Numbered from the stretch's first letter, positions 7,892-23,932 are shown. The stretch is 64,000 bases of DNA from Armatimonadota bacterium (GCA_050948905.1 JBMNES010000001.1:2592083-2656082); one strand, 5' to 3'. Translations and numbers: made by a program. Notes: generated by a model not told the origin, from the letters alone.

Positions 7892-9103
7892 TCAACGATA
7901 AGTCCAATCGGCATTAAGCCACACGACACCAAACCTGGGAGCGCCGACGTCTTCTGCAGTTTTCGGAGGCACTACAGTAAGCTCTTCGGAAGTAAACCCG
8001 CTGTCATACATCATAACTCCATAGGCGTCTGCTATTCTCGCTACCAAAGTATATACATCTGGAACCAATGGTAAAGAACTTATCTTAACATCGTAGGAAC
8101 CAGCTCCCGATATATCTCGTCGGTCTCCTTCGAGAATGTTGCTGGTGTGTGCTAGTATTTTCCCCATTCCATCGGTCACAAATATCCCTATCCTCGGCGT
8201 AGCTATAAACTCGGTGGCTTCAAAGTGAATTCTGATATCCATAGGCTCGCCGGCTTCCGCCACCCACTCCACACCGTCCGTCAGATGCTCAAGCTTGGTC
8301 ACCCGGAGTGGTGTAATTGGTATTTCAGTTACATCTTCTCCCGGCCGGGTTTGCCGTATCAATGAGCGCTTGTGCTCGGCTATCAACTCGCGATAAGCTT
8401 TTACAGCACATTCGCCGTCAGATATTGTCTTAATTGAGCCGTGGTCGAGAACAGCCACCCTATCGCAAATGCTAGTCACAGCGCCCATATTATGCGAGAC
8501 GAACACAATGGTTTTCTCAGATGACCTCAGCTCACGCATGCGCTTTGTGCATCTCTCCTGAAACGCGGCATCTCCAACGCTGAGAACCTCATCGACAATC
8601 AAAACCTCAGGGTCTACGTGAGCAGCAACGGCAAACCCCAGGCGAGCATACATCCCGCTGCTATAACGCTTTACAGGGGTGTCTATAAACTTCTCAAGCT
8701 CTGCAAATGCCACGATCTCATCAAACTTGGAGGCTATCTCGCGCTGGGTCATGCCGAGAATTGATCCGTTGAGATATATATTTTCCCTGCCGGTCATCTC
8801 CGGATGAAATCCTGCTCCGACCTCTATAAGAGCCGATACACGCCCCCTGGTGCGGATGCGGCCTTTGGTGGGGTTCATAATCCGGGTCAGCAGCTTCAAC
8901 ATCGTGCTTTTGCCTGCGCCGTTGTGCCCGATGATGCCGATGGCCTCGCCTTGCTTTACCTCAAATGATATGTCCTTGAGCGCCCAGAAGTCCTCTCGTA
9001 CGCGACGTCGCAGCATTCCGCGAGTCAGGTCCGCCAAGTTTTTTGGCCTGTCGTGAGCCAGTATAAACTTTTTCGATACGTTCTCCACCGAAATGGCATT
9101 CAT
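7892..9103 (-). CDS. wzt: ABC transporter ATP-binding protein Wzt/TagH type with C-terminal carbohydrate-binding extension
   Basis: 403 aa; Walker A GHNGAGKST, signature YSSGMYARLGFA, Walker B LIVDEVLSVGD; about 160-aa C-terminal beta-rich domain typical of Wzt O-polysaccharide-binding domains. Confidence 0.85.
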   Translation of the reverse strand: MNAISVENVSKKFILAHDRPKNLADLTRGMLRRRVREDFWALKDISFEVKQGEAIGIIGHNGAGKSTMLKLLTRIMNPTKGRIRTRGRVSALIEVGAGFHPEMTGRENIYLNGSILGMTQREIASKFDEIVAFAELEKFIDTPVKRYSSGMYARLGFAVAAHVDPEVLIVDEVLSVGDAAFQERCTKRMRELRSSEKTIVFVSHNMGAVTSICDRVAVLDHGSIKTISDGECAVKAYRELIAEHKRSLIRQTRPGEDVTEIPITPLRVTKLEHLTDGVEWVAEAGEPMDIRIHFEATEFIATPRIGIFVTDGMGKILAHTSNILEGDRRDISGAGSYDVKISSLPLVPDVYTLVARIADAYGVMMYDSGFTSEELTVVPPKTAEDVGAPRFGVVWLNADWTYR

Positions 9104-9127
9104 TATCTCAACACAACCCCACTACAA

Positions 9128-11569
9128 CTATAGTGATGCGGCCAACTCGCCGCCTTTTTTCCTCTTCAACATTCTGGCAGATATTATAAAATAGCACAGC
9201 AATATAATCGCCGATATGCCGGATACGATAGCACCCAGCTTCAGGCCTGGCGGGAAATAGCGGAACTCGATGTTATGCTGTCCCGCAGGTAGCATCAGGC
9301 CGAGGAACCCTATGTTCACTTTCTCTATTTGTGCCGGCTGGCCGTCGACGAAGGCGCTCCAACCTGCGCCATAAGGTATGCTGAAAAAGACCATACGGGG
9401 CGCATCCAACTCTATTTTTGCCGCAAACCCCGTGCTGTCCGCCGTGTAGTCGGTGCAGGCGTGCTTTTTCATCTCTAAAGCATCGGTCATCCAATCGAAA
9501 TCGTTGCATTTAGCCGGGCCAGATGCGAACTTGTGCATATCACCGCCATATTTCTCTATCTGCTCGTCAGACAAAACAACAGCCTTCAGCATCAGCTTCT
9601 CTATGCAGTCCTTATATTGCGCCATCTGATTTTCGCTGATGTAGGTATCATACGAAAGCCCCATCGGCACATAATATTGATTTTCGTAGATATGCGTATC
9701 TGTTTTTTTTACAAGTTTGTAACCCGGCATCGTAAGAACAAAATCTTCTGGATCAAAATTCACGAAATACTTAACCGAGAGCAGTGAGCGCAGGGCGGGG
9801 CGGTTGAAGGGCATAATTGACGTTACTGCGCCTACTTCGCTGCAGTTGGTTAGATCCTCAAATACAGCGATGTGTTTTGTTCGAATGCTGGTAAACACAT
9901 TAGGCGAACTGACGTTTATAAAAGTGCTGTAATTTCGTATCTCGTGAGGATGGTCTATCCTGAAATAATGTGATTTTCCGGTATCGAGCATATTTTTTTT
10001 ATTTACCACTCTGTTGATTAGGTAATCCACATTTGTAGCTTTGGCACTCTCAACTCCAGTGTTAATTACGTCTCGATTATTCAGCTCAACAAAAAAAGCC
10101 AGGTTTGCGCAGGCTGCTATGGCTACGCAAGTCATTATGAAGCGATGACTAGAATTTTTGAGCAAAATCAAAAACAGCAGAAAATAATTGAGAAAGCAGA
10201 GCGCCCAAGCAGTAACAATGAGATTACGTCCACCCAAATAAGGATCGCCTGTAACAATATCAAACCACCATTGTATCAGCTCAAATTTAAGGAGACTGTG
10301 AAGCTTGGCTAAGACATTTGGGTACAAAGTTACTATCCCAAAAGGGATTGACAATACCCCACAAATTGACAGTGAAATCAGAGCATAGCCACGTAAAACG
10401 CTGTCCTTTAGGGAATCTCGTTGCTCCAAGACCTTTGTTGTGGCAAGTGTTAGAATAAATGCCAAACCAAACCACCATCGAGTATACATCCAGTTGGTAA
10501 ACCCGCTAAAAGCCGCATTCGAAACAGGTATGAAAGATAAGATTAAGCAGGTAAGTATTAAACGAGAGAGCCAGTTTTTGAACCTCGTCAAGTAGACAAA
10601 TACGAAAGCAAATCCAAACAAGGGCAGAAAAATGCCGGTAGAGGTCCAACTGTTCGTTAATGGAATAAAAGCGTGTCGGACTAGGCCTTCCGACGGCATA
10701 AAGAAAACCCGGATTAGCTCGAAGTAGCGCAGAGGCTCGTGAAATATCCATTGCTTTATACTTGCAGCTTGCTCCGTAGTTGCACGAGCACAGTCAAACA
10801 CCATATATATCTTCGGAAATACAACAAAGCTTGATAGAGCAACGCCAAGCAAATAACCTGTTATTATGGCGATTGGCATCCGTCCAAGTTTTTCGGATTT
10901 TGTATTGGTGTAGAAAACTCTAAACACGATATATAGGAAAAGAAACAAGCTGCTGGCCGCGAACATATAGAAACTTGCCAATGTATTGATACAAACTGCA
11001 AACGCAAATAAGGTAAAACCATATCTATGCTGGCGCAGTATCAATTCGATACCAATGATAAGCAGTGGAAACACAGCAACAACATCAGTAAACACGAGGA
11101 ACTGCGTGTTGATTATCGTGTAACCCGAAAAAGTATATAGTAATGCGCCAATAGCGGAATTACGACTTGATACGAACATATTCAGGGCTAGATAAGAAAG
11201 GCAAGCCGCAACCGCAAATTTCAAAATGTTTGTGTAGCCAATAGCCCAAGGCAACCATTTTTCCGGAAATAACATCGTCAGCCAAAAGAATGGGCTGCCA
11301 GATACTAAAGCACCCCCACCCGTACCCAGCCCTACTTTTTGGCTCCACCACGGCGTTCCAGTCATCAGCAGTCGCTTATATTCGAGTATCATAGGAATAA
11401 ATTGTTCGCTGAAGTCGCCACGGATGACATATAGCCCCTTAAACTTCAAAATAGTCGGCAGCATAGCCAGAAGCGCGATTCCGGCAGCCCATAGAGCTAC
11501 AGTCCAGCAGCGGATCGGTTTGGTCCCTTGCTCTATTTCCTGAGGTGTTTGTGTCTCCTGAGTGATCAT
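9128..11569 (-). CDS. YfhO-family integral membrane glycosyltransferase (GT-C like)
   Basis: 813 aa; about 13 N-terminal TM helices, large extracytoplasmic C-terminal domain and terminal TM anchor, the characteristic YfhO topology and size; start ATG abuts stop of wecE-like gene (11569/11570). Confidence 0.6.
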   Translation of the reverse strand: MITQETQTPQEIEQGTKPIRCWTVALWAAGIALLAMLPTILKFKGLYVIRGDFSEQFIPMILEYKRLLMTGTPWWSQKVGLGTGGGALVSGSPFFWLTMLFPEKWLPWAIGYTNILKFAVAACLSYLALNMFVSSRNSAIGALLYTFSGYTIINTQFLVFTDVVAVFPLLIIGIELILRQHRYGFTLFAFAVCINTLASFYMFAASSLFLFLYIVFRVFYTNTKSEKLGRMPIAIITGYLLGVALSSFVVFPKIYMVFDCARATTEQAASIKQWIFHEPLRYFELIRVFFMPSEGLVRHAFIPLTNSWTSTGIFLPLFGFAFVFVYLTRFKNWLSRLILTCLILSFIPVSNAAFSGFTNWMYTRWWFGLAFILTLATTKVLEQRDSLKDSVLRGYALISLSICGVLSIPFGIVTLYPNVLAKLHSLLKFELIQWWFDIVTGDPYLGGRNLIVTAWALCFLNYFLLFLILLKNSSHRFIMTCVAIAACANLAFFVELNNRDVINTGVESAKATNVDYLINRVVNKKNMLDTGKSHYFRIDHPHEIRNYSTFINVSSPNVFTSIRTKHIAVFEDLTNCSEVGAVTSIMPFNRPALRSLLSVKYFVNFDPEDFVLTMPGYKLVKKTDTHIYENQYYVPMGLSYDTYISENQMAQYKDCIEKLMLKAVVLSDEQIEKYGGDMHKFASGPAKCNDFDWMTDALEMKKHACTDYTADSTGFAAKIELDAPRMVFFSIPYGAGWSAFVDGQPAQIEKVNIGFLGLMLPAGQHNIEFRYFPPGLKLGAIVSGISAIILLCYFIISARMLKRKKGGELAASL

Positions 11570-12703
11570 CTAGGCGTCAAAGCTCCTTATGCACTCGATA
11601 ACACGGTTCTGGTCGTCAACGCGCAGATCGTTATAGAAAGGCAGCCTGACGAGTTGATCGCTGACTCTTTCTGTTACCGGGCAATCGTACTGCTCCCCGC
11701 CCATTTCCTTGCCCTGGTCCGAAAGGTGCAGCGGCAGGTAGTGGAACACGCTTTGAATGTTGTTGGAGGCAAGATATTGTATGAATCGCTGGCGCACTTC
11801 GAGTGACGGCATCAGCAGATAGAACATATGATACGGCTGCTCGCAGTGGTCAGGCACTACCGGCAACCGCACTCCATTTTGCTCCGCCCAGTCCGCTAGC
11901 CCCTCGTTATACATCTCCCAGACACGCCTGCGTTTGGCTTGAATGGCCTCAGCCACCTCAAATTGTGCATACAAAAACGCGGCCAGTATGTCGGATGACA
12001 AATAGCTCGAGCCTACATCCACCCAGGTGTATTTATCGACCTGGCCCCTGAAGAACCTGCTTCTGTTGGTCCCTTTTTCCCTGATTATCTCCGCTCGCTC
12101 TACCAGTGCAGGGTCGTTAATCAGCAGTGCCCCACCCTCGCCACAGGTGAAGTTCTTGGTCTCGTGGAAACTCTGAGTAGCCAGACAACCGAACGTGCCA
12201 AGCTGCTGGCCTTTATATTTGCCGAACAAGCCGTGAGCGTTATCCTCGACGACGCCGATTTTGTGCTTATTTGCAATATCCATCACGGCGTCCATCTCGC
12301 AACCAACTCCGGCGTAATGCACAGGAACGATCGCCTTAGTCTTGGATGTTATCAGCCCTTCCAGAAGAGATTCATCGAGATTCAGCGTATCTTCCCTAAC
12401 ATCTATAAACACCGGTTTTGCGCCGCGGAGCACAAAAGCGTTAACTGTCGAGACGAATGTAAACGACGGTACGATAACTTCGTCGCCCTCTTTTATATCC
12501 AGAAGCAGCGCAGACATCTCCAGGGCATGGGTGCAGGAAGTAGTCAACAAAACAGCCTGGCTGCCTGTTCGCTCTTTCAAAAAAGCGTGGCATTTTTTAG
12601 TAAACGGCCCGTCGCCGGAGATATGGCCGTTTGCGATGGCCTCTGCGATGTAAGCCAGTTCTTTTCCCTCAAAACAAGCCCTGTTAAATGGCACTCTCTG
12701 CAT
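11570..12703 (-). CDS. wecE: dTDP-4-amino-4,6-dideoxyhexose aminotransferase (DegT/DnrJ/EryC1 family, WecE/ArnB-like)
   Basis: 377 aa; long collinear similarity to E. coli WecE as recalled (SCTHALEMSALLLDIKEGDEVIVPSFTFVSTVNAFVLRGAKPVFIDVREDTLNLDE..., HETKNFTCGEGGALLIND, REKGTNRSRFFRGQVDKYTWVDVGSSY). Confidence 0.85.
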   Translation of the reverse strand: MQRVPFNRACFEGKELAYIAEAIANGHISGDGPFTKKCHAFLKERTGSQAVLLTTSCTHALEMSALLLDIKEGDEVIVPSFTFVSTVNAFVLRGAKPVFIDVREDTLNLDESLLEGLITSKTKAIVPVHYAGVGCEMDAVMDIANKHKIGVVEDNAHGLFGKYKGQQLGTFGCLATQSFHETKNFTCGEGGALLINDPALVERAEIIREKGTNRSRFFRGQVDKYTWVDVGSSYLSSDILAAFLYAQFEVAEAIQAKRRRVWEMYNEGLADWAEQNGVRLPVVPDHCEQPYHMFYLLMPSLEVRQRFIQYLASNNIQSVFHYLPLHLSDQGKEMGGEQYDCPVTERVSDQLVRLPFYNDLRVDDQNRVIECIRSFDA

Positions 12704-12718
12704 ATAACCTACCCCTGG

Positions 12719-13783
12719 TTAAATATCTATCACATCGACGTATATAGGATTATCGGACAATATAGCGTCACCGTCCAGCGTTTTAACATATAATAATAAA
12801 TGGACATCATTTTGGAACACATTTCGCAGCGCTTGAGTTACAGGTCCACCGATTTCCGAAGCCCCACAAATCGCATAGACTCCGGCGTCTAAGGCACGAT
12901 TGTTTACAGCGTTTACAAGCGTTCGCAGATCGTCAGCCTCGCGATATCCCGCCAGCATCAACCTGTATTGCTCCATTACCTGTCCCGGTTTGAGCACTTT
13001 CGGCACCGGAGTGAAAAGCCGGGCAGCGTCCAAAACGAATGAGGCAACGCGCATCCTGGCGTCTAAAGACCGAACCGTGGTCCTCACCACTTTGCCCCTG
13101 TCCCAATATCCCAAACAGGCCGCTATCTGCCCGTCCTCTTCCAACACCAGCACGTTTTCATAAGAAAACCCCGGCACTCTCTCAATGAACTCAGCAAGGC
13201 TATCTGCCGTATACGGCGAATACAAATCGTGCCCCTGCCAGGTGGCGTTTATCAACCCTGCTACTACTTCCAAATCATCACTCTTAAGGCACCGAACGGA
13301 CGATTCTCTGGCATTGACACTGTTTTTATACACCAGTTTGTACCTGGCACGCAAAGTCTTTTTCAAGCCATAGCCAGCCCTTTCGAACAAGGCTTTAGAA
13401 GGGTCGTTGGAATCCATTATGTAAACATATGATATGGCGGTTCCGTGCTGGCGGAAATAATCCTCCACATGCTCAATCAACGCACCTGCTACACCCTTCC
13501 GGCGATGATTCGGCGAGGTATAATAATTCCAGGAATAACCCACAATAGTCGATTTTCCGGCGACATCCACAGCCCTGACAGCACAACTCGCTGCGCCCAT
13601 TGGTTCGTTTTCTTCGTTGTGGGCTACGAATACTTTGCTCTCGGGATAGACGTCTGTTCGCCAGAAGTAATCAGGTGAATTGACTGAAGATATTGAACCA
13701 CCTTCTCCAAAGCTGGCCTGACCTTGTATAGTCTGCAATATTTGATTATCCGCCGGCGCAGCTTCACGAATCTTAATCTTCAA
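12719..13783 (-). CDS. tandem GNAT-fold acyltransferase
   Basis: 354 aa; N-terminal half has canonical GNAT motif A (HRRKGVAGALIEHVEDYFRQHG), C-terminal half is a second, degenerate GNAT-like domain; 11-nt overlap with upstream flippase-like gene. Confidence 0.6.
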   Translation of the reverse strand: MKIKIREAAPADNQILQTIQGQASFGEGGSISSVNSPDYFWRTDVYPESKVFVAHNEENEPMGAASCAVRAVDVAGKSTIVGYSWNYYTSPNHRRKGVAGALIEHVEDYFRQHGTAISYVYIMDSNDPSKALFERAGYGLKKTLRARYKLVYKNSVNARESSVRCLKSDDLEVVAGLINATWQGHDLYSPYTADSLAEFIERVPGFSYENVLVLEEDGQIAACLGYWDRGKVVRTTVRSLDARMRVASFVLDAARLFTPVPKVLKPGQVMEQYRLMLAGYREADDLRTLVNAVNNRALDAGVYAICGASEIGGPVTQALRNVFQNDVHLLLYVKTLDGDAILSDNPIYVDVIDI

Positions 13784-14714
13784 GCCTCGCTTTCGTCTCC
13801 TTCACAACGCATTTCCATACAGATAAATGAACCAGCGACAAAAGCACTGTCAAAAGCCCATAAGCCCTTAAAACCAACGCCCCCGCCTGGGCTTGAGGGG
13901 CCGTATTGCCGAAGTGCATAAGAAACTCCGTGACACCGACCTCGCTGACTCCCAGGCTGCCGGGTATGCAAGACAGCAGGCCTATGATGGTTATCACAGA
14001 CACAATCGCTGTCATTTTCTCAAACCCCGGATCAAGGGATAAGCTGGCCAGAGCAATTTGCCAGCCAAGGATCACTACAGCCCACGATATCGCGCTTACA
14101 AGAAAAACTACCGTGATTGTGGCGGCATCCCCGGCGCACGATTTCATCGCATCCATACACTCGCCGATTTTGCCTCTAACACCAGCCTTGTTTATGACCA
14201 GCAATGCGATTATCGCCGCGCCCACAATCCCCGCAGCGGCAGTATAAACCACCACCGGGTTCATCGATATACTAAGTCCACGAAACACGCTAAAGGCAGC
14301 CAGACCCGCCACTATAACCATATCGATTATCCGCTCTATTATAAAAGAGCCGTAACCCGGCGCACGATCCAGCAGGCCATATCGCTTAAGGAACTCTGTG
14401 CGCAATATCTCTCCGGACCTCAACGGCGTCAGAGTCGCAAGGCCTACGGTAATGGCGGTGCACATATACAAAGAGACCAGGCTGATCTTTACGCCCATCT
14501 TCCGCAGCAGTATATACCACCTCAGAGCACGCAAAACCCAATAGACCAGTATCGATACACCGCAACCGCATATCAAAAGCCAGAGGTTTGTCTGCAGCAG
14601 TATCCTGCCGATTGCCGCCCATTGGAAACTTCGTGCCACATACCACACGCACGCGGCAAATAACACCCCTCCGACTATCCAGACAATAGCGCGTTTTGCA
14701 GACAGATTGGACAT
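13773..14714 (-). CDS. flippase-like membrane protein (lysylphosphatidylglycerol synthase TM-region family, UPF0104)
   Basis: 313 aa, 8 predicted TM helices; N-terminal AKRAIVWIVGGVLFAACVWYVARSFQW...LRALRWYILLRKMGVKISL pattern typical of the MprF flippase-domain family. Confidence 0.6.
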   Translation of the reverse strand: MSNLSAKRAIVWIVGGVLFAACVWYVARSFQWAAIGRILLQTNLWLLICGCGVSILVYWVLRALRWYILLRKMGVKISLVSLYMCTAITVGLATLTPLRSGEILRTEFLKRYGLLDRAPGYGSFIIERIIDMVIVAGLAAFSVFRGLSISMNPVVVYTAAAGIVGAAIIALLVINKAGVRGKIGECMDAMKSCAGDAATITVVFLVSAISWAVVILGWQIALASLSLDPGFEKMTAIVSVITIIGLLSCIPGSLGVSEVGVTEFLMHFGNTAPQAQAGALVLRAYGLLTVLLSLVHLSVWKCVVKETKARLED

Positions 14715-14720
14715 ACCGTT

Positions 14721-15920
14721 CTATCCCGCCTTCACTGCCAGGCGAGATTTAAGCTCGTCTACTCGCTCGTCCAGTTCGCCTCTGTAATCGGCATAAATCA
14801 GCGCCTCGCCGACGCGATGCCTGCCGTTTATAAATGCCTCTACTGGTGCGCCAATCGGCAAGTCAATCGATATGTAGTCGACCCCGTTCTCATCTCTCAA
14901 CAAATCAAGTTGTTGGGCATCATAGTGCAGTTTGCCAGAACTGTGTGTGCCCAATAAGATTAAAGCGACCACTTTCGGCTCACCCAACTTAGGAAGCGCC
15001 GGTGCATCTCCGCACGCAGCCTTGACGCTGTATTCGACTATATCGAAATCGTAGCACTTTTTCCACAGTGTATTGAGCGAATTGCCACCCATACGGGGCG
15101 TCATCTCGATGATGTATATATCATCTCCATCAGCTACAAAATCGCAGTCAAACGGCCCATTCTTAATTCCGAGCATATCCCAAATGCGGCCCAACAGATC
15201 GAGTAATTTCGCTTTCTGAGCGCCCGATAGGGTTGATGGCACGTTGTGGCCACTGGTGGCAACATACGGCAACCCGACCGTCTGCCTGTCCGTTATAAGC
15301 GTAACGGCCAATCTTCCGTCTACCAGAATGCCCTCGCACGTCCCCTGCTGCCCATCGATATACTCTTCAATTACGCTCTGTCCGGTAGGGCTGAAACTAA
15401 CAGACTCTAGCAGCCTTGCATAATAATCATCAGGCGATTGCAATACAAAGATTCCCTTGCTGCCGGAAGACTTGTCGGGCTTGATGATCCATTTGCGCTC
15501 AGTAGATATCTCAACGGGCAACTCGGAGCCGACAGAGACTCTGTGCGATTGCGGGGATGGTAAGTCTTTGGTAATCAAAAAATCGCGAAACGCACCCTTG
15601 TCGCAGAGTATTTTAGCGCTTTCGTAAGGCGGGCCTGCCAGTCCCATCTTATCTGCAATATATGCGGCGGTAGGAACTGAGACGTCGGTGCAAGGGGAAA
15701 TAACCCCGTCTATCTTTTCCCGTTGTGCTATCTCAAGAACACCCTGCAAATCCGTAGTATCGACGTTATAACAGGCATCAGCCAGCGCATGGCCGGGGTT
15801 CGTTGGCACATTATCAGTGGTTACAACTCTGTAGCCCAGCCGCCTGGCGGTATTAATGGTCTCCAATTGATACAGCGACGCGGCAAGCACAAGAAGCGTT
15901 TTGTCAGTCATATAATTCAC
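14721..15920 (-). CDS. ATP-grasp domain ligase
   Basis: 399 aa; ATP-grasp motifs KWIIKPDKSSGSKGIFV, VIEEYIDGQQGTCEGIL, IIEMTPRMGGN; start overlaps stop of upstream GT2 by 17 nt. Confidence 0.7.
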   Translation of the reverse strand: MNYMTDKTLLVLAASLYQLETINTARRLGYRVVTTDNVPTNPGHALADACYNVDTTDLQGVLEIAQREKIDGVISPCTDVSVPTAAYIADKMGLAGPPYESAKILCDKGAFRDFLITKDLPSPQSHRVSVGSELPVEISTERKWIIKPDKSSGSKGIFVLQSPDDYYARLLESVSFSPTGQSVIEEYIDGQQGTCEGILVDGRLAVTLITDRQTVGLPYVATSGHNVPSTLSGAQKAKLLDLLGRIWDMLGIKNGPFDCDFVADGDDIYIIEMTPRMGGNSLNTLWKKCYDFDIVEYSVKAACGDAPALPKLGEPKVVALILLGTHSSGKLHYDAQQLDLLRDENGVDYISIDLPIGAPVEAFINGRHRVGEALIYADYRGELDERVDELKSRLAVKAG

Positions 15921-16842
15921 TCACCGTGTAGCCTACCCGCACACCTGTAAGCTGCTGGTTAAAGCGAGAAAGATATAAGCTGAATATCAGCAGGCAAAAC
16001 AGCGTAATGGCGTTGAAAAACGACGTAATGACCACCAGACTCGCCCAACCCGGCACAGCAGCACCCAATATCAAGACTCTATATATCACGACCAAAGATA
16101 GCAAAATCGCAAACGAAAACGCGGCAGCGCAAGCAATGGCGACAAGATAGACCGGATAGACCGAATAGCTGAACATAAGGTTCGCCGCCAAAAGCATGCT
16201 GCGTCTGATGTTATATCGAGATTTTCCGAATCGACGGGGCTCGTGAGCAACTTCAACGTTCGTATAAGAGGCAGCATGGGATAAGAGCATAGACGTAATA
16301 TAAGGGAACACGCCACCCATTTTGACCACGTTCTCGACGATAATTCGCTTCACAGCGCGGAAACTGGTCAACTGGAAATCCTTCGGCAAACCAAACATCC
16401 TGCGCTGGAGCATATCGATCATTCCACCGGCGGCGTTGCGAATCCCGCTGTGCTTTTTAGAGTCATAAGAGGCTATGGCCAGGTCAAAGCCTCGATCAAT
16501 AGCGGCGATTAGTTTCGGAATCTCCGATGGTGGGTTTTGGAGATCGTCATCCATCGTCACGATTATCTCACCCGTAACGAGAGAAAACCCGCACAGTATA
16601 GCGTTGTGCTGTCCGCTGTTTTTCAGAAGATGGACTATCTTCAGTCGATCCTCAAACCTGGATTTCAGGTCTCTCATCACAGCCCAACTGTTATCTGGAC
16701 TACAATCGTCGACCAGCACTATCTCAAAGTCCCGTCCCATCGTCTCAAGCACGGTTACAATCTCCGGGACAAGAATCGGCAGAGACTCCTCAGATCGATA
16801 CACCGGAATGACGACACTGATTTTGCCACTGGTTTTAGGCAA
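15904..16842 (-). CDS. polyprenol-phosphate glycosyltransferase (GT2; DPM1/GtrB/ArnC-like)
   Basis: 312 aa; ISVVIPVYRSEESLP...EIVLVDDCSPDNS...VTMDDDLQNPPSEIPKL plus two C-terminal TM helices, the architecture of undecaprenyl-phosphate sugar synthases. Confidence 0.8.
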   Translation of the reverse strand: MPKTSGKISVVIPVYRSEESLPILVPEIVTVLETMGRDFEIVLVDDCSPDNSWAVMRDLKSRFEDRLKIVHLLKNSGQHNAILCGFSLVTGEIIVTMDDDLQNPPSEIPKLIAAIDRGFDLAIASYDSKKHSGIRNAAGGMIDMLQRRMFGLPKDFQLTSFRAVKRIIVENVVKMGGVFPYITSMLLSHAASYTNVEVAHEPRRFGKSRYNIRRSMLLAANLMFSYSVYPVYLVAIACAAAFSFAILLSLVVIYRVLILGAAVPGWASLVVITSFFNAITLFCLLIFSLYLSRFNQQLTGVRVGYTVSELYD

Positions 16843-16854
16843 CTGTTACTCTCC

Positions 16855-17703
16855 CTAGATCGTTTCTGCGAATGCCGGTTCCAGGCGTTTGAAGTTGCGA
16901 TAGCCTATTATCAAAATCGTAACCGACGCCACCGCCGCTATTCCCACATAGTTCCACATTGGCGCCTGCCCTTCCAAAACACACTTCCTGACCCCATCGA
17001 TCAGCGGAGACATCGGATTGAGCATATACAAACCGAGATACTTCTTAGGTATCAGCGTGACAGGATACACAATCGGAGAAGCATACATCCAAACCTGCAA
17101 GAGCAGCGGCATCACGTGCCGGATATCCCTGTAAAACAGGTTCCAACTGGACAATATAAACGACACGCCCAGCATCAGACACATCTGAATCATCAACAGC
17201 GGAATCGCCAAAAGCGCCATCGGGCTGAGGTGAACTTTATAGTATATAATCAGCGGCAGCAATACTATGAGGCCCAGCGCCAGGTCCACCACCTTGCCTA
17301 AAATAGCAGATATCGGGAAGACCTCGCGTGGGAAATATATCTTGGTGATAAGGTTGAAGTTGGCTACCAGGCACTCAGAGCCTGCAGACATCCCGCCGGA
17401 GAAGAAAGTCCAGGGCAGCATAGCAATGTACGCGAAGATGGGATAAGGTATGTTGCCGGTGTCTATTCTAACAATGAACGACATCACGACCGTAAAAACA
17501 ATCGTCATCGCCATCGGCTGCAGTAGCGCCCACATAATGCCGAGCACCGACTGTTTATATCGCCCTCTGATGTCGCGGCGAGTCAGGCTTGCCACCAACT
17601 CCCTGTGCTGCCACAGGGCTCTTAACGCGCCACGCTTTTCTTCCTCCGGCCACTCCTCCTGAACTAATTCGGAAACTACACTATCCTCTACAACCTGCTC
17701 CAA
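16855..17703 (-). CDS. wzm: ABC-2 type polysaccharide export permease
   Basis: 282 aa; LWQHRELVASLTRRDIRGRYKQSVLGIMWALLQPMAMTIVF is the conserved Wzm N-terminal motif; 6 TM helices. Confidence 0.8.
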   Translation of the reverse strand: MEQVVEDSVVSELVQEEWPEEEKRGALRALWQHRELVASLTRRDIRGRYKQSVLGIMWALLQPMAMTIVFTVVMSFIVRIDTGNIPYPIFAYIAMLPWTFFSGGMSAGSECLVANFNLITKIYFPREVFPISAILGKVVDLALGLIVLLPLIIYYKVHLSPMALLAIPLLMIQMCLMLGVSFILSSWNLFYRDIRHVMPLLLQVWMYASPIVYPVTLIPKKYLGLYMLNPMSPLIDGVRKCVLEGQAPMWNYVGIAAVASVTILIIGYRNFKRLEPAFAETI

Positions 17704-17737: not shown

Positions 17738-20044
17738 CTATTCGCTTACTTTGCTGTCAACACCACCGCTGCCGATCGGCTTGCCGTCAGTTGCCGACCC
17801 ATCAATAGAACCACCGCTGCCAGGTAGTGCGAAATCTGCATAATATCTTGAATAAAAGTGACAGCTATCGACAGTATCCGACGGCATTCTATTCACTGCA
17901 ACACCGATAATATTCGCCCGCGCTTTCCTCAGCAGGTCGCGAGTGTGGACCTCGGTTCCCCGTGGCACCTGGTTTGCTGAGACGACCATAAGCACCGCAT
18001 CCACCCAATTGGCCAACATAGGGCTATCGCTAAATACAATCGTGCTGGGCGTATCGAACAGCACCAGATCACACTTATCCTGCAGCGAACTCACTAACTC
18101 GTGCATCGCCTCCGATCCTAACAGCTCAGAAGGGTTCATAGGCTGCGGCCCCGCTGGGATTACGATCAGGTTTTCCACCTCAGTCGTATGACAGGCATCA
18201 ACCAGAGTCCCTTTGCCCTGCAGCAACGTACTCAACCCGGCAGCGTTCGGTATATCGAAAAACCGATGCAAACTGGGCTTACGCATATCCGCATCTATAA
18301 GGATCACTCGTTTGCCGATCTGCGCCAACGCTATGGCTAAATTGCACACCGTCGTAGTAGCGCCCTGACCAGGTCTCCCAGTGGCGATCATCAACGTACG
18401 GAAGGGATTGTCTCTAAGCGCAAACAACACATTGGTGCGCAATATTTTATATGATTCGGCCATTGGTGAAAGAGGATAAAGATGAGTCAGCCTCGGAAGC
18501 ATCCCATCCCTCACCACCAACTGCGGCGTCACGCCGAGCACAGGTAGTTCCAGCATTTTTTCAACATCGGACGCGTGGCGCATTCGGTTGTCGATGGAAT
18601 CCAGCCAGACTGCCGCCAACACACCAACGATCAACGATAGCACAAAGCCATAGACCAGCAAGGATTTTCGCGACGGCCCCTGCACTATAGGCCCCTGTGA
18701 ATAGTGAGCCCACCCGTAAGGTACTATGGATCCTGTGCGAGTAAACTCCTTTTCGGCGATAACGGCCTGGTCGTGTTTCTCCGACAGCATTTTGTAAGTC
18801 GCCTCGGCTTGCGCATATTCCGTCATCAACTCAACATACTGTGGCTGTGAATCGGAGAGTTTCCTGACCCTTTCCTCGGCCTCCGCAAGGCTATTATCTA
18901 CTGCCTGGAGCCTGGCTTGTGCTGTAGCTAAGGAATATTGAGCGTCGGATTTCTTTCGGAGAAGGGCCTGGTGAATCTCGTTAAGCACAGGCGATGAGTA
19001 CGATGGGCCCTCTTCGGCAATCTTATCCTTGAGTATCTCGATTCGCTTCTCCGCCGCCTGATAGAGTTCGTGTTTTGGTTTATAGCGCTGGGCGATCATT
19101 CGCAAATCGACTTCTGCCTGCATCAGTTGTTCTTCGAGCTTAACCGCGCGCGGGTTCATCTCCGCCGGCAGCAGTTGATCGGAGACAAGAGGTTGAGTAA
19201 CCATCTGTAAATCAACGTTAGCAGATGCGGCCTGAGCCTCTTTAACTGCAGCTTCAGCCTCAGACTTCGCTGCCCTCAAGCCAGCGATAGAACTAATGGC
19301 CGTCCCGGTCTCCGCATCAATAGAGACCACCTTATGATTGTCCTTATATTGAGCGATCTCTTCACGCAAGACATCAAGCTTGACCTTGGCTTCCTGTTTG
19401 CTGGTTTTAAGGAAGTGCTCGTATGTGCGAGTATCCGCCCGGCTCTTATCCTGATAGCTCTCAGCAAAGGCCACCGCCACCGCATTGGCAAGGAAAGGGG
19501 AATCGTGCCCGTTTGGCATCTTAATTGTCAATCGTATGATATCTGTCGTAGTACCCTTTTCTCCGACAGTCTCACTTCGTACAGGAGTTACTTCAAGCAC
19601 GCTGCTCCAGTCTTGATGTCGCAGCGGCTTGCCCGGCTCTATCATTATTGTAGTCAAAGGTCTATTTGGTCGCGGAGGCAGTTCCGAATCCGGCACATCC
19701 GGCCCCACCAGGGCCCGCAGTTGCTTCTTCTGCTGGTCGGGGGTCTTTTCAAGAAATGCGCGCGCTCTATCGTAGACTTCACCCTGCTGCGCTAGAATGA
19801 TGAGGTTGCTTAGAATAACAGTTCTGTCAGGACCCGTGCCGCGGCGAGTGCTGGCCGTTGTAACTCCGCCCTGCATTACCTGCATACTTGGCGATACATA
19901 AGCTGAAGCCTCGTAGACAATTCTAGGCTTAGGTGCAGCGATTATAATGACCAAAAGGGTAATAGCCACGACCCCAAGAATCATCCATCTTCTCTGCCTG
20001 ATCACTCTTATGGTATGCCAAAAGTTCATAACAGAAATGACCAA
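17738..20044 (-). CDS. Wzc/GumC-like polysaccharide co-polymerase with C-terminal CpsD/BY-kinase-like P-loop domain (Walker A lysine replaced)
   Basis: 768 aa; N-terminal TM, long coiled-coil periplasmic region, second TM, then ATGRPGQGATTTVCNLAIALAQIGKRVILIDADMRKPS (Walker A-like without Lys; Walker A' ILIDADMR; Walker B DLVLFDTPS). Confidence 0.75.
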   Translation of the reverse strand: MVISVMNFWHTIRVIRQRRWMILGVVAITLLVIIIAAPKPRIVYEASAYVSPSMQVMQGGVTTASTRRGTGPDRTVILSNLIILAQQGEVYDRARAFLEKTPDQQKKQLRALVGPDVPDSELPPRPNRPLTTIMIEPGKPLRHQDWSSVLEVTPVRSETVGEKGTTTDIIRLTIKMPNGHDSPFLANAVAVAFAESYQDKSRADTRTYEHFLKTSKQEAKVKLDVLREEIAQYKDNHKVVSIDAETGTAISSIAGLRAAKSEAEAAVKEAQAASANVDLQMVTQPLVSDQLLPAEMNPRAVKLEEQLMQAEVDLRMIAQRYKPKHELYQAAEKRIEILKDKIAEEGPSYSSPVLNEIHQALLRKKSDAQYSLATAQARLQAVDNSLAEAEERVRKLSDSQPQYVELMTEYAQAEATYKMLSEKHDQAVIAEKEFTRTGSIVPYGWAHYSQGPIVQGPSRKSLLVYGFVLSLIVGVLAAVWLDSIDNRMRHASDVEKMLELPVLGVTPQLVVRDGMLPRLTHLYPLSPMAESYKILRTNVLFALRDNPFRTLMIATGRPGQGATTTVCNLAIALAQIGKRVILIDADMRKPSLHRFFDIPNAAGLSTLLQGKGTLVDACHTTEVENLIVIPAGPQPMNPSELLGSEAMHELVSSLQDKCDLVLFDTPSTIVFSDSPMLANWVDAVLMVVSANQVPRGTEVHTRDLLRKARANIIGVAVNRMPSDTVDSCHFYSRYYADFALPGSGGSIDGSATDGKPIGSGGVDSKVSE

Positions 20045-20256: not shown

Positions 20257-21066
20257 TTAGCAGGCGCCGCGTTTGAGCAAGACCGCAGGGATAGTGGAGA
20301 GCAAAATCCACACGTCCAGCAACACGCTCCGCTGTTCGATATAGAGCATATCCATTTTTACTCGCTCTTCATAGGATGTGTTGCTGCGGCCCCTTGTCTG
20401 CCATAAGCCGGTGAGGCCAGGAGTTACTGTCTTGAACTGTTCGATGCACGGGCCATAAATATCGACCTCATCGGCATGAATCGGCCTTGGGCCTACAAAT
20501 GCCATGTCGCCAAGGATGACGTTAATTAACTGCGGCAGTTCGTCGAGGCTGGATTTCCTTAAAAAACTGCCGACTCTGGTGACCCGTGGATCGGATTTGA
20601 GTTTGCAACAGACGTAATAATTGCGCTTCAACTCTTCGTCTCTAGCCAGAATGCCCTCAGCATCGTCGACCATCGAACGGAACTTTAACATATCGAAGCT
20701 CTTTCCGTTTTTGCCGATCACCCGTCTTTTGAAAAGTATAGGGCCAGGGCCAGAAGCTCTTACGAGAACAGCGGCAATCAGGAAGACCGGAGCCGACACC
20801 AGCAGCAGCGAAGCGGCCATAGTCACATCAATCGTGCGCTTGATGACATGATAACATGCGCCTACTCGCCGTTCCAACTCGGCCAGTCGCCGCTGGCGTC
20901 GCTTTATGACGACAATTGCGCCAAATCCTATAGGGGCCAAAACTGCAGCAGATACTTCTGGAACAGTCGCAATGTTGTTATCAGCATACACAATGTGTAC
21001 ACCGATTAACAGCAATAGCGCCGACAGTATCAAAATTGACGACAGATGTCGCAAAGCTTCCCTCAT
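20257..21066 (-). CDS. polyprenyl-phosphate sugar phosphotransferase (bacterial sugar transferase, small PglC/WbaP C-domain type)
   Basis: 269 aa; KRTIDVTMAASLLLVSAPVFLIAAVLV re-entrant helix, DELPQL, FVGPRP and PGLTG motifs diagnostic of initiating phosphoglycosyltransferases; about 70-aa N-terminal extension with two hydrophobic segments. Confidence 0.85.
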   Translation of the reverse strand: MREALRHLSSILILSALLLLIGVHIVYADNNIATVPEVSAAVLAPIGFGAIVVIKRRQRRLAELERRVGACYHVIKRTIDVTMAASLLLVSAPVFLIAAVLVRASGPGPILFKRRVIGKNGKSFDMLKFRSMVDDAEGILARDEELKRNYYVCCKLKSDPRVTRVGSFLRKSSLDELPQLINVILGDMAFVGPRPIHADEVDIYGPCIEQFKTVTPGLTGLWQTRGRSNTSYEERVKMDMLYIEQRSVLLDVWILLSTIPAVLLKRGAC

Positions 21067-21342: not shown

Positions 21343-22350
21343 CTATTGCCTGTCGGCGTACCACTCTTCGCTGAAACGCCGGTGCTCCGCGCTGTCTTTG
21401 ATCGTGCGCCACCATTGTTGGTTTTCCATATACCAGCGAATAGTATCACGCATTCCTTGCTGGAAATCGTGTGTCCGCTGCCATCCTAAAGCCAGGAGCT
21501 TGCTGGAATCTAGCGCGTAGCGGCGGTCGTGTCCCGGCCGATCCTCTACGTGCTTTATAAGGCGCTCGTCCTTGCCGGTAACCTCAAGAATCATCTTGAC
21601 AATCTCGACGTTGGGTCTTTGATTGTCGCCGCCGATATTGTATATCTCCCCGGCAACACCCTTGTCCATCACGGTTTCGATGCCAGTGCAGTGGTCGAGC
21701 ACATGCAGCCAGTCCCGAATCTGCATTCCGTCGCCATATACAGGCAGAGATATGTCGTCTATGGCGTTGCTGACGAACAGCGGCACGAGCTTTTCAGGCT
21801 GTTGGTATGGGCCGTAGGTGTTGGAACCGCGGGTGACCATAACAGGCACGCCATAGGTGCGCCAGTATGCCCTCGCAAGCAACTCCCCGCCGGTTTTGCT
21901 CGCCGAATATGGACTGTTAGGGGAAACTGGATCGGTTTCTTTTGAGAAGCCCTCCTCGACGTCGCCGTATACTTCGTCTGTTGAGATTTGTATGAATTTC
22001 TCGAGCCCGTATTCTCTGGCGGCCTCCATTAAAGTGTAGACGCCCATCACATCGGTCGTGATAAACGCCTCCGGATCATAAATTGACCGGTCCACGTGGC
22101 TTTCAGCTGCGAAGTTTATGACAATATCAGCGTCAGCGACTGGCTTTGCGACATCTTCCCTGCAGCGAATATCCCCTTTGATAAAACTAAAACGACTGTC
22201 GTCTCTGACATCTTCCAGGTTCTCAAGATGCCCCGCGTAAGTGAGCGCGTCAAGAACGACGATCTCGCAGTCGTCACGCGTGTTGAGAATATGCCTGACA
22301 AAATTGCTTCCAATAAACCCGGCCCCGCCGGTCACAAGTAGCTTCTTCAA
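21343..22350 (-). CDS. rfbB: dTDP-glucose 4,6-dehydratase
   Basis: 335 aa; MKKLLVTGGAGFIGSNFVRHIL..., extended SDR with YSASK catalytic motif (PYSASKTGGELL). Confidence 0.9.
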   Translation of the reverse strand: MKKLLVTGGAGFIGSNFVRHILNTRDDCEIVVLDALTYAGHLENLEDVRDDSRFSFIKGDIRCREDVAKPVADADIVINFAAESHVDRSIYDPEAFITTDVMGVYTLMEAAREYGLEKFIQISTDEVYGDVEEGFSKETDPVSPNSPYSASKTGGELLARAYWRTYGVPVMVTRGSNTYGPYQQPEKLVPLFVSNAIDDISLPVYGDGMQIRDWLHVLDHCTGIETVMDKGVAGEIYNIGGDNQRPNVEIVKMILEVTGKDERLIKHVEDRPGHDRRYALDSSKLLALGWQRTHDFQQGMRDTIRWYMENQQWWRTIKDSAEHRRFSEEWYADRQ

Positions 22351-22389: not shown

Positions 22390-22845
22390 CTAGACAAACT
22401 TGATGTCCCAGTTGTACGGAATCTTATCGCTGTTCCACACCTCGCGATACTCGTCCGGGTCCTTCGAATCGTACGGTCGGGTGGGATAATTAATCAGCAG
22501 CGAGGGCTCCGTGCCAATGGTTTTGTAGCCGTGCATAGTGCCGACGGGGATCTTCAGCAGAATCGGGTTATTTTCGCCGAGAAAGAACTCGTTTACCTCG
22601 CCGTAAGTGGCGGAATCCTCGCGGCAATCATATACAACCGCCTTCACCATCCCTTTTACTACAACCCAAAGATCGTGCTGTTTTCTATGATAATGCCACG
22701 CACGAATGACCCCCGGATAGTTGAGAGATACATAACACTGCCCAAAATGCTCGAATATTTCGTCGTCCTCGCGCAGCATCTCCATAAGATAGCCGCGCTC
22801 ATCTGCGTGAGGCTTGAGCTGTTTGATCTCGATTCCATCTATCAT
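22390..22845 (-). CDS. RmlC-like cupin (dTDP-4-keto-6-deoxyhexose 3,5-epimerase family or related ketoisomerase), short form
   Basis: 151 aa; DERGYLMEMLRE...AWHYHRKQ resembles RmlC DERGFF...GLHYQ block but protein is 30-40 aa shorter than canonical RmlC; ATGA overlap with rmlA. Confidence 0.55.
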   Translation of the reverse strand: MIDGIEIKQLKPHADERGYLMEMLREDDEIFEHFGQCYVSLNYPGVIRAWHYHRKQHDLWVVVKGMVKAVVYDCREDSATYGEVNEFFLGENNPILLKIPVGTMHGYKTIGTEPSLLINYPTRPYDSKDPDEYREVWNSDKIPYNWDIKFV

Positions 22846-23909
22846 CAGATTACACTGACCTCGCTGTTATCCCCCAGCATCATTCGATAAGCCTTTGGGG
22901 TTTTGTTATTGCGTGAAATGTGAACGTTCTTGCCAATCAGGCTATCAGCCATTCTGCTGCCAATATCCAGCACCTGGGAGTCCTCCAGAATTATGCTGTG
23001 CTCTATCTCGCTGCCACGGATTATTGAACGATCGTTAATAGAGGTATATGGGCCGATAAAGGCGTTCTCAACAACGCAGTCCTCGCCGATTATCGCAGGG
23101 CCGCGAATGCAACTGTTGACTATCCTGCTGCCCTTACTGGCGACTACCCTGCCCTCGATAGTGGACGATTCGTCGATTTCACCGTCGAGCTGAGTCTTAA
23201 GCCCGTCTAGGATCATTCGATTGGCCTCGAGCATATCTTCCAGCTTGCCGGTGTCTTTCCACCAGCCCGTAATGATATGGCTTTCGACCCGATAACCTTT
23301 GTCAATTAAATACTGAATTGCGTCGGTAATCTCAAGTTCGCCTCGCGCGGATGGCTTGATAGCGTTTACGGCCTCAAAGACGTGATGATCGAACATATAA
23401 ACGCCGACCAAGGCCAGGTCCGAGGGTGGGTTTTCAGGTTTTTCGACCAGCCGCACCACCCTGCCCTGTTCAATCTCCGCTACCCCGAACTCACGCGCAT
23501 TGGGCACGTGAGCAAGCAGGATCTGTGAGTTGGCCTCGGTTTGGGTGTATTCATCGACAAACGGCTTGACACCATCTTTTATTAAATTGTCTCCGAGAAA
23601 CATAACAAACGGCTCGCCCGCCATAAAATCCTCGGATATCTTCACCGCATGCGCCAAACCCAATGGAGCGTCCTGTTGAATGTAGGTTACTTTTACGCCA
23701 AAGCGGGAGCCGTCGCCGACCGCTGCTCGAATCTCCTCGTGAGTATCTCCGACGATAATGCCGATATCATCGATCCCAGCGTCACGAATGGCTTCTATCG
23801 CATAAAACAGAATAGGCTTATTCGCCACAGGCACAAGCTGTTTGGCGCTCGTATGGGTGATAGGACGAAGTCTGGTGCCTTTGCCGCCGCTGAGAATAAG
23901 GGCCTTCAT
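22845..23909 (-). CDS. rmlA: glucose-1-phosphate thymidylyltransferase, long form with C-terminal left-handed beta-helix
   Basis: MKALILSGGKGTRLRPITHTSAKQLVPVANKPILFYAIE...; ATG at 23909 preceded by GGAGGAG; the longer MEEQ start at 23921 lies inside that SD. Confidence 0.9.
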   Translation of the reverse strand: MKALILSGGKGTRLRPITHTSAKQLVPVANKPILFYAIEAIRDAGIDDIGIIVGDTHEEIRAAVGDGSRFGVKVTYIQQDAPLGLAHAVKISEDFMAGEPFVMFLGDNLIKDGVKPFVDEYTQTEANSQILLAHVPNAREFGVAEIEQGRVVRLVEKPENPPSDLALVGVYMFDHHVFEAVNAIKPSARGELEITDAIQYLIDKGYRVESHIITGWWKDTGKLEDMLEANRMILDGLKTQLDGEIDESSTIEGRVVASKGSRIVNSCIRGPAIIGEDCVVENAFIGPYTSINDRSIIRGSEIEHSIILEDSQVLDIGSRMADSLIGKNVHISRNNKTPKAYRMMLGDNSEVSVI

Positions 23910-23932
23910 TTGCTCCTCCACTTATTACCTAA

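Follow-up and report, generated by a model that had tools for sequence, protein, structure and literature searches.

Six consecutive genes at positions 9128-16842, on the minus strand of a 64,000-nucleotide stretch of DNA from an Armatimonadota bacterium (GCA_050948905.1 JBMNES010000001.1:2592083-2656082; the whole stretch is hereafter called the window), probably specify, by analogy with the Arn pathway, a three-component route for the extracytoplasmic decoration of an ABC-exported glycan. They lie between wzm and wzt, the permease and ATPase genes of the exporter. An original prediction, made from the sequence alone, had read them as a set by which an amino sugar is made, acylated, loaded onto undecaprenyl phosphate (Und-P), flipped and transferred outside the cytoplasm, and the comparisons given below support this reading. 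From the wzm side, the six genes are:

15904..16842, minus: ArnC-like polyprenyl-phosphate glycosyltransferase of family 2 (GT2) with two C-terminal transmembrane helices; PF00535 102 bits (cutoff 23.3)
14721..15920, minus: ATP-grasp carboxylate-amine ligase, overlapping the GT2 stop; PF13535 48 bits and PF02655 38 bits, both above cutoff
13773..14714, minus: MprF-type flippase-like membrane protein with no synthase domain, 313 aa; PF03706 122 bits (cutoff 33.4), TIGR00374 76 bits (cutoff 43)
12719..13783, minus: two-domain (dupli-GNAT) acyl-CoA N-acyltransferase, 354 aa; PF00583 62 bits, aa 39-138
11570..12703, minus: WecE-class dTDP-4-amino-4,6-dideoxygalactose (Fuc4N) transaminase; PF01041 307 bits, NF008687 575 bits (cutoff 375)
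9128..11569, minus: YfhO-family GT-C glycosyltransferase, 813 aa; PF09586 231.5 bits (cutoff 28.5), aa 33-669

The eight open reading frames from wzm to wzt (7892-17703) are all on the minus strand, and the coordinates of all eight agree with those first predicted. Neighbouring genes in this interval are separated by at most 24 nt or overlap (GT2 with ATP-grasp, and flippase-like gene with GNAT), and therefore the block may be read as a single operon. Gene callers place the ATP-grasp start three codons later, at an ATG at 15911, which gives a protein of 396 aa. The profiles that had been expected were found for PF00535, ATP-grasp, PF03706, PF01041 and PF09586, but PF00583 was found once only, its second match being absent. 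The Pfam scores of the six products are well outside the range of chance.

Identities of the six products

In a PDB sequence search the closest solved relative of the GT2 is ArnC (E 9e-43), followed by GtrB (6e-27) and DPMS (5e-23). Its residues D98-D99-D100-L-Q102-N103 align without gaps with 100-DADLQN-105 of ArnC, and its R135, R203 and S208 correspond to the conserved ArnC residues R137, R205 and S210, which contact UDP and Und-P; the roles of the DXDLQN residues (Asp as catalytic base, Asp and Gln as metal ligands) and the contacts of ArnC have been described (PMC12690121). Hydropathy places C-terminal hydrophobic helices at aa 235-253 and 269-287. A GT-A domain, the DXDLQ motif and the two C-terminal helices are all present, as in the polyprenyl-phosphate (Pren-P) glycosyltransferases ArnC, GtrB and DPMS, and the predicted DPM1/GtrB/ArnC-like GT2 is borne out. 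The score against the ArnC equivalog NF007986, however, is 167 bits and does not reach the cutoff of 529; the protein is thus ArnC-like and not ArnC proper. ArnC takes only an N-formylated donor (PMC12690121), and therefore the pairing of an N-acylating enzyme with an ArnC-like GT2 has a direct precedent.

The ATP-grasp protein was modelled by AlphaFold (AF2) with a pLDDT of 94. Its nearest folds (TM-score 0.73-0.79) are the L-amino-acid ligases BL00235, RizA and BacD (3vot, 4wd3 and 3vmm), PurT (1kjq, 0.73) and an uncharacterised PurD-like protein, all of which are carboxylate-plus-amine ligases, and the three-domain fold is seen in the model. The Pfam domain LAL_C2 matches weakly, and NCBIfam PurT models match over nearly the full length (8e-10 and 4e-8), while every named NCBIfam family match is far under its cutoff and none of the close homologues has been characterised. 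The assignment as an ATP-grasp ligase is supported by both the profiles and the fold.

The PF03706 protein consists of transmembrane segments only (about eight by hydropathy). Both PF03706 and TIGR00374 are above cutoff, as the prediction of an MprF-type flippase-like protein would have it, whereas the score against the bifunctional MprF, NF033480, is 29.9 (cutoff 600) and the fused DUF2156 synthase is lacking; judged by these profiles, the protein is flippase-like and not MprF. No match was obtained with it in a PDB sequence search. A role for the PF03706 family beside Pren-P GT2s and GT-C enzymes has already been predicted from archaeal AglD neighbourhoods (Makarova et al. 2015, PMC5898192). 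NCBIfam also contains a curated PF03706-type 'glucosaminyl phosphatidylglycerol flippase', NF053789, and therefore at least one member of the family has already been assigned to the flipping of an amino-sugar-bearing lipid. This model gives a weak match (28.5 bits, cutoff 320) at 6470-7426 of L015, one of the loci surveyed below.

The C-terminal half of the GNAT, scanned alone against Pfam at E 0.1, has no match. The full-length AF2 model (pLDDT 94.2) has N-myristoyltransferase as its best fold match, with a TM-score of 0.62-0.66 over about 380 columns. N-myristoyltransferase is the archetypal two-GNAT-domain acyl-CoA N-acyltransferase and acylates the alpha-amine of a peptide. The tandem GNAT that had been proposed is therefore right by predicted fold, in which two GNAT-like domains are seen, but not by profile, where one PF00583 match stands in place of two. 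The N-terminal domain carries the coenzyme A motif R94-x-x-G97-x-A99, in which, across the aligned family, R94 hardly varies and G97 does not vary at all, and no likeness to WecD is detectable. A split MprF, with the flippase-like protein and the dupli-GNAT acting as a tRNA-dependent aminoacyl transferase, was considered and rejected, as the N-terminal domain is a standard acetyl-CoA GNAT (PF00583, R-x-x-G-x-A) and there is no DUF2156 signal.

The transaminase is above the curated WecE cutoff, and its nearest PDB structures are WecE (4piw, 3e-130) and, as the next family, ArnB (1e-51), in keeping with the WecE/ArnB class originally assigned to it. The WecE equivalog score is accompanied by rmlA and rmlB, both above cutoff and only a few genes upstream, and therefore the WecE substrate can be made by the locus itself:

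22845..23921, minus: rmlA (long form), glucose-1-phosphate thymidylyltransferase, which catalyses the first reaction toward the dTDP-sugar precursor; TIGR01208 500 bits (cutoff 320)
21343..22350, minus: rmlB, dTDP-glucose 4,6-dehydratase, which makes the WecE substrate dTDP-4-keto-6-deoxyglucose; TIGR01181 462 bits (cutoff 365)

The PF09586 score of the 813-aa protein is far above cutoff, and its identification as a YfhO-family membrane protein, a predicted GT-C, stands. Hydropathy indicates a polytopic protein with about 10-12 segments that end by aa 496, then a soluble part of about 280 aa (497-777) and a last transmembrane segment at 778-796. D52 and E63, just past the first transmembrane segment, are invariant in four aligned orthologues and paralogues, and are candidates for the acidic residue that the family keeps in its first extracytoplasmic loop. 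No solved relative of YfhO was detected by a PDB sequence search.

Conservation of the block and of its core

The block is co-conserved in related genomes, as had been anticipated. It recurs in full in a near-identical metagenome-assembled genome (MAG; L006) and, divided over two contigs, in an Armatimonadota MAG, in which L007 holds rmlA through the flippase-like gene and L066 holds the flippase-like gene, GNAT, transaminase, two YfhO genes, wzt, a GH88 gene and a pyruvyltransferase gene. The GH88 gene (unsaturated glucuronyl hydrolase family; L066 8829-10037) lies between wzt and the pyruvyltransferase gene, and none is found at the equivalent place of the window. This Armatimonadota MAG, from an anaerobic digester, is the closest named genome (62-87% protein identity). 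An identical YfhO protein, with matching gene order, is found on sewage and wastewater metagenome contigs, and the window is therefore probably from a wastewater bacterium.

The DNA of the window and that of L006 are about 91% identical over the housekeeping flank and on to the end of the donor genes; the identity collapses inside YfhO, and is 85% over the YfhO 3' end and wzt and 76% over the pyruvyltransferase gene. Taken gene by gene, the donor genes are 92-98% identical, but YfhO is 64%, wzt 83% and the pyruvyltransferase 71% identical. Compared with its L006 orthologue (14352-16796), YfhO is 85% identical over aa 1-40, 35-72% over aa 41-600 and 82-100% over aa 601-813, and the tandem YfhO paralogues of the Armatimonadota MAG (L066 2709-5126 and 5129-7573) have the same conserved ends and hypervariable centre. 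This centre looks like the result of serotype-like diversification, or of cassette exchange of the transferase core. The donor genes are thus constant between the two strains, whereas YfhO has diverged in step with the exporter ATPase and the genes next downstream, which is to be expected if YfhO recognises the polymer of the locus. This circumstantial evidence suggests that the acceptor may be the polymer exported by Wzm/Wzt. The G+C content falls to 0.44-0.45 across the YfhO gene.

The ATP-grasp family is a tight one, of about 396 aa and roughly 50% identity across phyla. There are 591 matches at E<=1e-10 among the candidates scored, and these are labelled only 'ATP-grasp domain-containing protein' or 'biotin carboxylase'. 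A pattern scan with one genome per species gave 59 loci. The orthologous set comprises 40 loci with at least 37% identity; adjacency was counted over 35 loci and gene presence over 32. The 40 orthologous loci span about ten phyla, and the taxa include Acidobacteriota, Cyanobacteria, Anaerolineae, Bacteroidota, Verrucomicrobiota, Planctomycetota, Myxococcota, Gamma- and Betaproteobacteria and Mycobacterium.

From these loci a common arrangement may be seen. An ArnC-like GT2 gene is directly upstream of the ATP-grasp gene, on the same strand, in 29 of 35 loci, and a PF03706 gene is directly downstream in 16 of 35. Of 32 loci, 24 include a WecE-type transaminase (the Bacteroidota copy scores 574 bits on the WecE model), at least one S-adenosylmethionine (SAM) methyltransferase is likewise found in 24 of 32, and a large polytopic membrane protein is nearby in 21 of 32. 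The common order is GT2, ATP-grasp, flippase-like, (divergent DegT-like protein), methyltransferase, WecE, so that the GNAT of the window stands in the slot held elsewhere by a methyltransferase. Four Acidobacteriota-type loci and one Anaerolineae locus have PMT_2 as the membrane partner and one Bacteroidota locus has DUF6044, while in the others the partner is unclassified. The GT2 gene keeps its place directly upstream even where the ATP-grasp homologue is remote, with 25-31% identity (Streptomyces, Kiloniella, Acidimicrobiales).

The loci also differ in their additional genes. Three gammaproteobacterial loci (L016, L023 and L035; e.g. L035 7064-9013) carry an extra ornithine/diaminopimelate-type pyridoxal phosphate (PLP) decarboxylase and a DOT1-like methyltransferase; the decarboxylase is FslC/LysA-like, with the rhizoferrin N-citrylornithine decarboxylase FslC as best match (2e-47), which hints that in these variants an amide-linked amino acid is decarboxylated. 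The Mycobacterium locus has in addition an AT3-SGNH acyltransferase, a 2-oxoglutarate oxygenase-like protein and three methyltransferases, and no named pathway could be recognised in it. Loci L008-L045 (e.g. L015 4340-10651; L044 8095-16542; L041 6464-14960) usually have one to three different SAM methyltransferases (clusters c3, c5 and c10), and often a second, divergent DegT-like protein to which aminotransferase models align over the N-terminal half only.

From gene content, therefore, what constantly accompanies the GT2 and the WecE transaminase in the different phyla is the ATP-grasp enzyme and not the GNAT. The donor-synthesis genes travel together, independently of the backbone glycosyltransferases, with an exchangeable GT-C, and the GNAT and YfhO are lineage-specific additions.

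The predicted route and its alternatives

From the gene identities we infer the following steps, including their chemistry and the acceptor. RmlA and RmlB, identified as genes, would provide dTDP-4-keto-6-deoxyglucose, and the transaminase, by its family, would convert it into dTDP-4-amino-4,6-dideoxy-D-galactose (dTDP-Fuc4N). With ATP, the ATP-grasp enzyme would form an amide between the 4-amino group and a carboxylic acid, which is most likely an amino acid, and would thereby stand in for the job that the ArnA formyltransferase does toward ArnC. The dupli-GNAT would then N-acetylate the free amine of the amino acid, a step at which most other lineages would use methyltransferases. The ArnC-like GT2, if it acts as its family does, would move the N-acylated sugar to Und-P, and the predicted product is Und-P-4-(N-acetyl-aminoacyl)amido-4,6-dideoxygalactose. 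The PF03706 protein would flip this lipid-linked sugar, and YfhO would put the sugar onto the polymer delivered by Wzm/Wzt.

Fuc4N has the ring stereochemistry of 4-amino-4-deoxy-L-arabinose (L-Ara4N) plus a C5 methyl group, and this 6-deoxyhexose homomorph fits ArnC and ArnB as the nearest characterised relatives. The position of the GNAT in the methyltransferase slot and the PLP decarboxylase variants are both in keeping with an amino acid that has been appended and offers a free amine. The ATP-grasp enzyme is the only conserved candidate for the N-acylating step. An amino acid is favoured as its acid substrate because L-amino-acid ligases are the best-matching characterised folds, because methyltransferases, a dupli-GNAT whose acceptor domain is N-myristoyltransferase-like and alpha-amino-acid decarboxylases suit a residue with a free amine or an amino-acid end, because no deformylase is present, and because O antigens are known to contain N-acetyl-amino acids in amide linkage, such as the N-acetylglycine of Escherichia coli O121 (PMC7685785).

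Several points weigh against the route as drawn. The Und-P ligand R128 of ArnC is replaced by a tyrosine, Y126, in the GT2. The PurT-like similarity of the ATP-grasp enzyme would equally allow formate or another small acid, and the sugar that the enzyme acylates could be the lipid-linked one instead of the nucleotide-bound one. The relatives of the GNAT (three close clusters in a word-indexed search, and 65 at E<1e-30 in an exhaustive one) include one whose context was read and is unrelated to glycans, and therefore its role here is indicated by its position alone. To our knowledge, no PF03706 protein has been shown to flip a polyprenyl-phosphate sugar, and the PF03706 gene is adjacent in only about half of the orthologous loci. 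The acceptor could be other than the locus polymer, as YfhO-family enzymes also glycosylate lipoteichoic acid and proteins.

With the same architecture, the ATP-grasp enzyme might be a PurT-like N-acylase for formate or a small acid, giving dTDP-4-formamido- (or short-acyl-) Fuc4N, with the GNAT acting elsewhere, on another amine or on the polymer. The near-full-length PurT matches, the PurT structure among the top folds (TM-score 0.73) and the strict need of ArnC for a formylated donor are in its favour. There is also a precedent in PurN and PurT, which formylate one amine in a folate-dependent and an ATP-grasp-dependent manner, respectively. However, the L-amino-acid ligases score equally well or better and LAL_C2 matches weakly; with a formyl cap no obvious substrate would be left for the GNAT, nor for the methyltransferases (one to three) and PLP decarboxylases that are found with the module elsewhere; and no ArnD-like deformylase is present. 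This reading is considered unlikely.

Similarly improbable is a scheme in which the lipid-linked sugar is made as proposed but the acceptor of YfhO is a surface or S-layer protein (Pgf-like), lipid A or lipopolysaccharide core (Arn-like), or another wall polymer. After ArnC, the best named NCBIfam matches of the GT2 and YfhO, although weak, are PgfS, PgfM2 and PgfM1 of streptococcal protein glycosylation, and elsewhere the donor module is found outside wzm/wzt loci, with PMT_2-type or unknown GT-Cs, so that the donor is not bound to one acceptor. In the window, on the other hand, the block forms one operon with wzm and wzt, which flank it, a layout kept in the Armatimonadota relatives, and YfhO varies along with wzt and the adjacent downstream genes between near-identical strains.

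Two interleaved functions, finally, are very unlikely: WecE and the GNAT would make dTDP-Fuc4NAc in a WecD-like manner for a cytoplasmic main-chain glycosyltransferase, the GT2, flippase-like protein and YfhO would attach a plain hexose in the manner of Gtr or CsbB systems, and the ATP-grasp enzyme would amidate a uronic acid or pyruvate ketal. WecE with a GNAT acetyltransferase is indeed the canonical route to dTDP-Fuc4NAc in enterobacterial common antigen, the pyruvyltransferase gene adjoins wzt, and an ATP-grasp enzyme that amidates glucuronate is known from the Campylobacter jejuni capsule (PMC11800379). However, GT2, ATP-grasp and WecE are co-conserved across phyla without the GNAT or shared backbone glycosyltransferases, which ties the WecE product to the GT2/ATP-grasp pair; moreover, the GT2 is ArnC-like (amino-sugar donor) and not GtrB-like, the GNAT is N-myristoyltransferase-like with no detectable WecD likeness, and no UDP-sugar dehydrogenase is conserved with the module.

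The surrounding locus and known systems

The remaining assigned genes next to the block are:

20257..21066, minus: small WbaP-type polyprenyl-phosphate phosphoglycosyltransferase, polymer initiation; Bac_transf, TIGR03025 and TIGR03022 E ~1e-76
17738..20044, minus: Wzc-like polysaccharide co-polymerase/tyrosine autokinase with two transmembrane segments; TIGR01007 161 bits (cutoff 108)
16855..17703, minus: wzm, ABC-2 permease of the glycan exporter; PF01061 60 bits, Wzm/RfbD model E 2.5e-21
7892..9103, minus: wzt, ABC ATPase with C-terminal extension; PF00005 84 bits, TagH and Wzt models E 1e-55 to 1e-62

With PF01061 and PF00005 above cutoff and a weak Wzt_C match (28.3 bits, just under the cutoff of 30.4), the exporter is of the Wzm/Wzt type. 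The WbaP-type protein is below the TIGR03025 and TIGR03022 cutoffs because it consists of the catalytic domain only. The locus also holds a pyruvyltransferase gene beside wzt and six GT4 or GT2 genes, and a terminal pyruvate cap may be recognised by Wzt through its weakly matching carbohydrate-binding C-terminal domain. The Wzc-like protein, of a kind typical of Wzy-dependent pathways, is found here together with a Wzm/Wzt exporter. Between the pyruvyltransferase and GT4 genes, there is a 502-aa protein (5101-6609, minus) of about 12 hydrophobic segments, which matches neither Pfam nor NCBIfam and could be polymerase-like, ligase-like or a further GT-C; its gene has no counterpart in L006, the flank of which stops short of the region of glycosyltransferase genes in the window. 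Just upstream of the glycan locus, among the housekeeping genes valS, lepA and lipA, there is a 949-aa protein with CBM9 and GH20 (hexosaminidase) domains (28768-31617, minus).

Between rmlA and rmlB lies an RmlC-like cupin gene (22390-22845, minus; 151 aa; PF00908 70 bits, weak FdtA match), which is kept only in close relatives, and no rmlD was seen nearby. The cupin may serve another sugar of the polymer, as a 3,5-epimerase, a 3-epimerase or a ketoisomerase. As a 3,4-ketoisomerase leading to a 3-amino sugar it is unlikely, since it does not accompany the module in other loci and the transaminase clearly scores as a WecE equivalog.

Among known systems, the Arn operon (PmrHFIJKLM) likewise combines a 4-aminotransferase, N-acylation of the 4-amine, loading onto Und-P by an ArnC-type GT2, flipping, and GT-C transfer outside the cytoplasm. 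It differs in using UDP-pentose instead of dTDP-6-deoxyhexose chemistry (RmlA/RmlB/WecE), a folate-dependent formyltransferase instead of an ATP-grasp ligase, ArnE/F and ArnT instead of the PF03706 protein and YfhO, and lipid A instead of what is here likely an exported polymer. A Pfam and NCBIfam scan of the block gave no formyltransferase, polysaccharide deacetylase (ArnD), SMR-type or ArnT/PMT profile; as there is no ArnD deformylase, the acyl group is probably kept. The block would work like Arn, but is not an Arn operon.

The CsbB/GtcA/YfhO and GtlA/GtlB systems of teichoic-acid glycosylation (Rismondo et al. 2018, PMC5836110; reviewed in PMC8035078) also have a cytoplasmic Pren-P GT2 that forms a C55-phosphate-linked sugar; once this has been flipped, a YfhO-type GT-C passes the sugar on to a polymer that is already outside the membrane. 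Their donor, however, is a plain UDP-hexose or UDP-N-acetylglucosamine, and they have a GtcA/GtrA-type flippase and no tailoring genes, whereas here an amino-sugar tailoring set and a PF03706 protein are found in a probably diderm organism. None of the six products matches a GtrA-like family in Pfam, and for want of such a flippase the block is not a canonical Gtr/CsbB system.

In Gtr (GtrA/B/C) O-antigen glucosylation and in GacI-L, too, an exported polymer is decorated with a single Und-P-linked sugar, and the Gac system pairs side-chain addition with an ABC-transporter-dependent polymer (rhamnan). Their GT-C families are other ones, their donors are simple glucose or N-acetylglucosamine, and ATP-grasp, GNAT and aminotransferase are lacking. 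In function, the block would be a three-component glycosylation system of the sort known from Gtr, CsbB/GtcA/YfhO and GacI-L, to which an Arn-like branch for the amino-sugar donor is joined. O antigens of the O121 type contain a 4-amino-4,6-dideoxyhexose with an N-acetylated amino acid, which is the predicted product class; in E. coli O121, N-acetylglycine is attached to 4-amino-4,6-dideoxyglucose (Qui4N). In contrast to the route proposed here, that sugar enters the repeat unit from a cytoplasmic nucleotide donor and not through Und-P and a GT-C, and it is gluco (Qui4N) rather than galacto (Fuc4N). The archaeal AglD-type triad (PMC5898192) combines a Pren-P GT2, an MprF-type flippase of the same family as here and a GT-C (PMT/STT3-like), but its flippase is fused to the GT2, it concerns N-glycosylation without amino-sugar tailoring genes, and its role is predicted only.

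The original prediction had placed the ATP-grasp ligase and the dual GNAT outside the described Arn, Gtr and YfhO systems. In agreement with this, a full-text literature search found no paper with an ATP-grasp enzyme alongside YfhO or in an ArnC or Und-P glycosylation context, and a search that included Und-P/GT-C/flippase and dTDP/amino-sugar terms found no description of the GT2/ATP-grasp/WecE module. The general decoration scheme is a known one, but the ATP-grasp step belongs to a multi-phylum module for which no description was found, and the window holds the GNAT and YfhO variant of this module in a wzm/wzt locus.

A wider extension is possible but doubtful, namely that GT2/ATP-grasp/WecE is the core of an undescribed, phylum-spanning system of envelope modification that parallels Ara4N addition, D-alanylation and MprF. 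The ATP-grasp enzyme would aminoacylate a lipid-carrier-bound 4-amino-6-deoxyhexose and so gate its entry to Und-P; the amine would then be methylated by one to three methyltransferases (cationic or betaine-like) or acetylated, as by the dupli-GNAT of the window (neutral), and interchangeable GT-Cs (YfhO, PMT_2, DUF6044 and unknown families) would serve lineage-specific acceptors. Such a cassette would make the surface charge tunable.

Extracytoplasmic decoration by Und-P-linked sugars and GT-C enzymes controls phage receptors, resistance to antimicrobial peptides and serotype. Apart from Ara4N, galactosamine and glucosamine, its donors known to date are simple sugars. The cassette points to a new class of donor, an ATP-grasp-acylated and probably aminoacylated Fuc4N, with a GT2/ATP-grasp/WecE core that is kept from Acidobacteriota and Cyanobacteria to Mycobacterium. 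If this is true, the enzymes known to make lipid-linked sugar donors would come to include ATP-grasp ligases, a function would be found for a large family now labelled only 'ATP-grasp domain-containing protein' or 'biotin carboxylase', and the PF03706 flippase-like family would gain a testable client.

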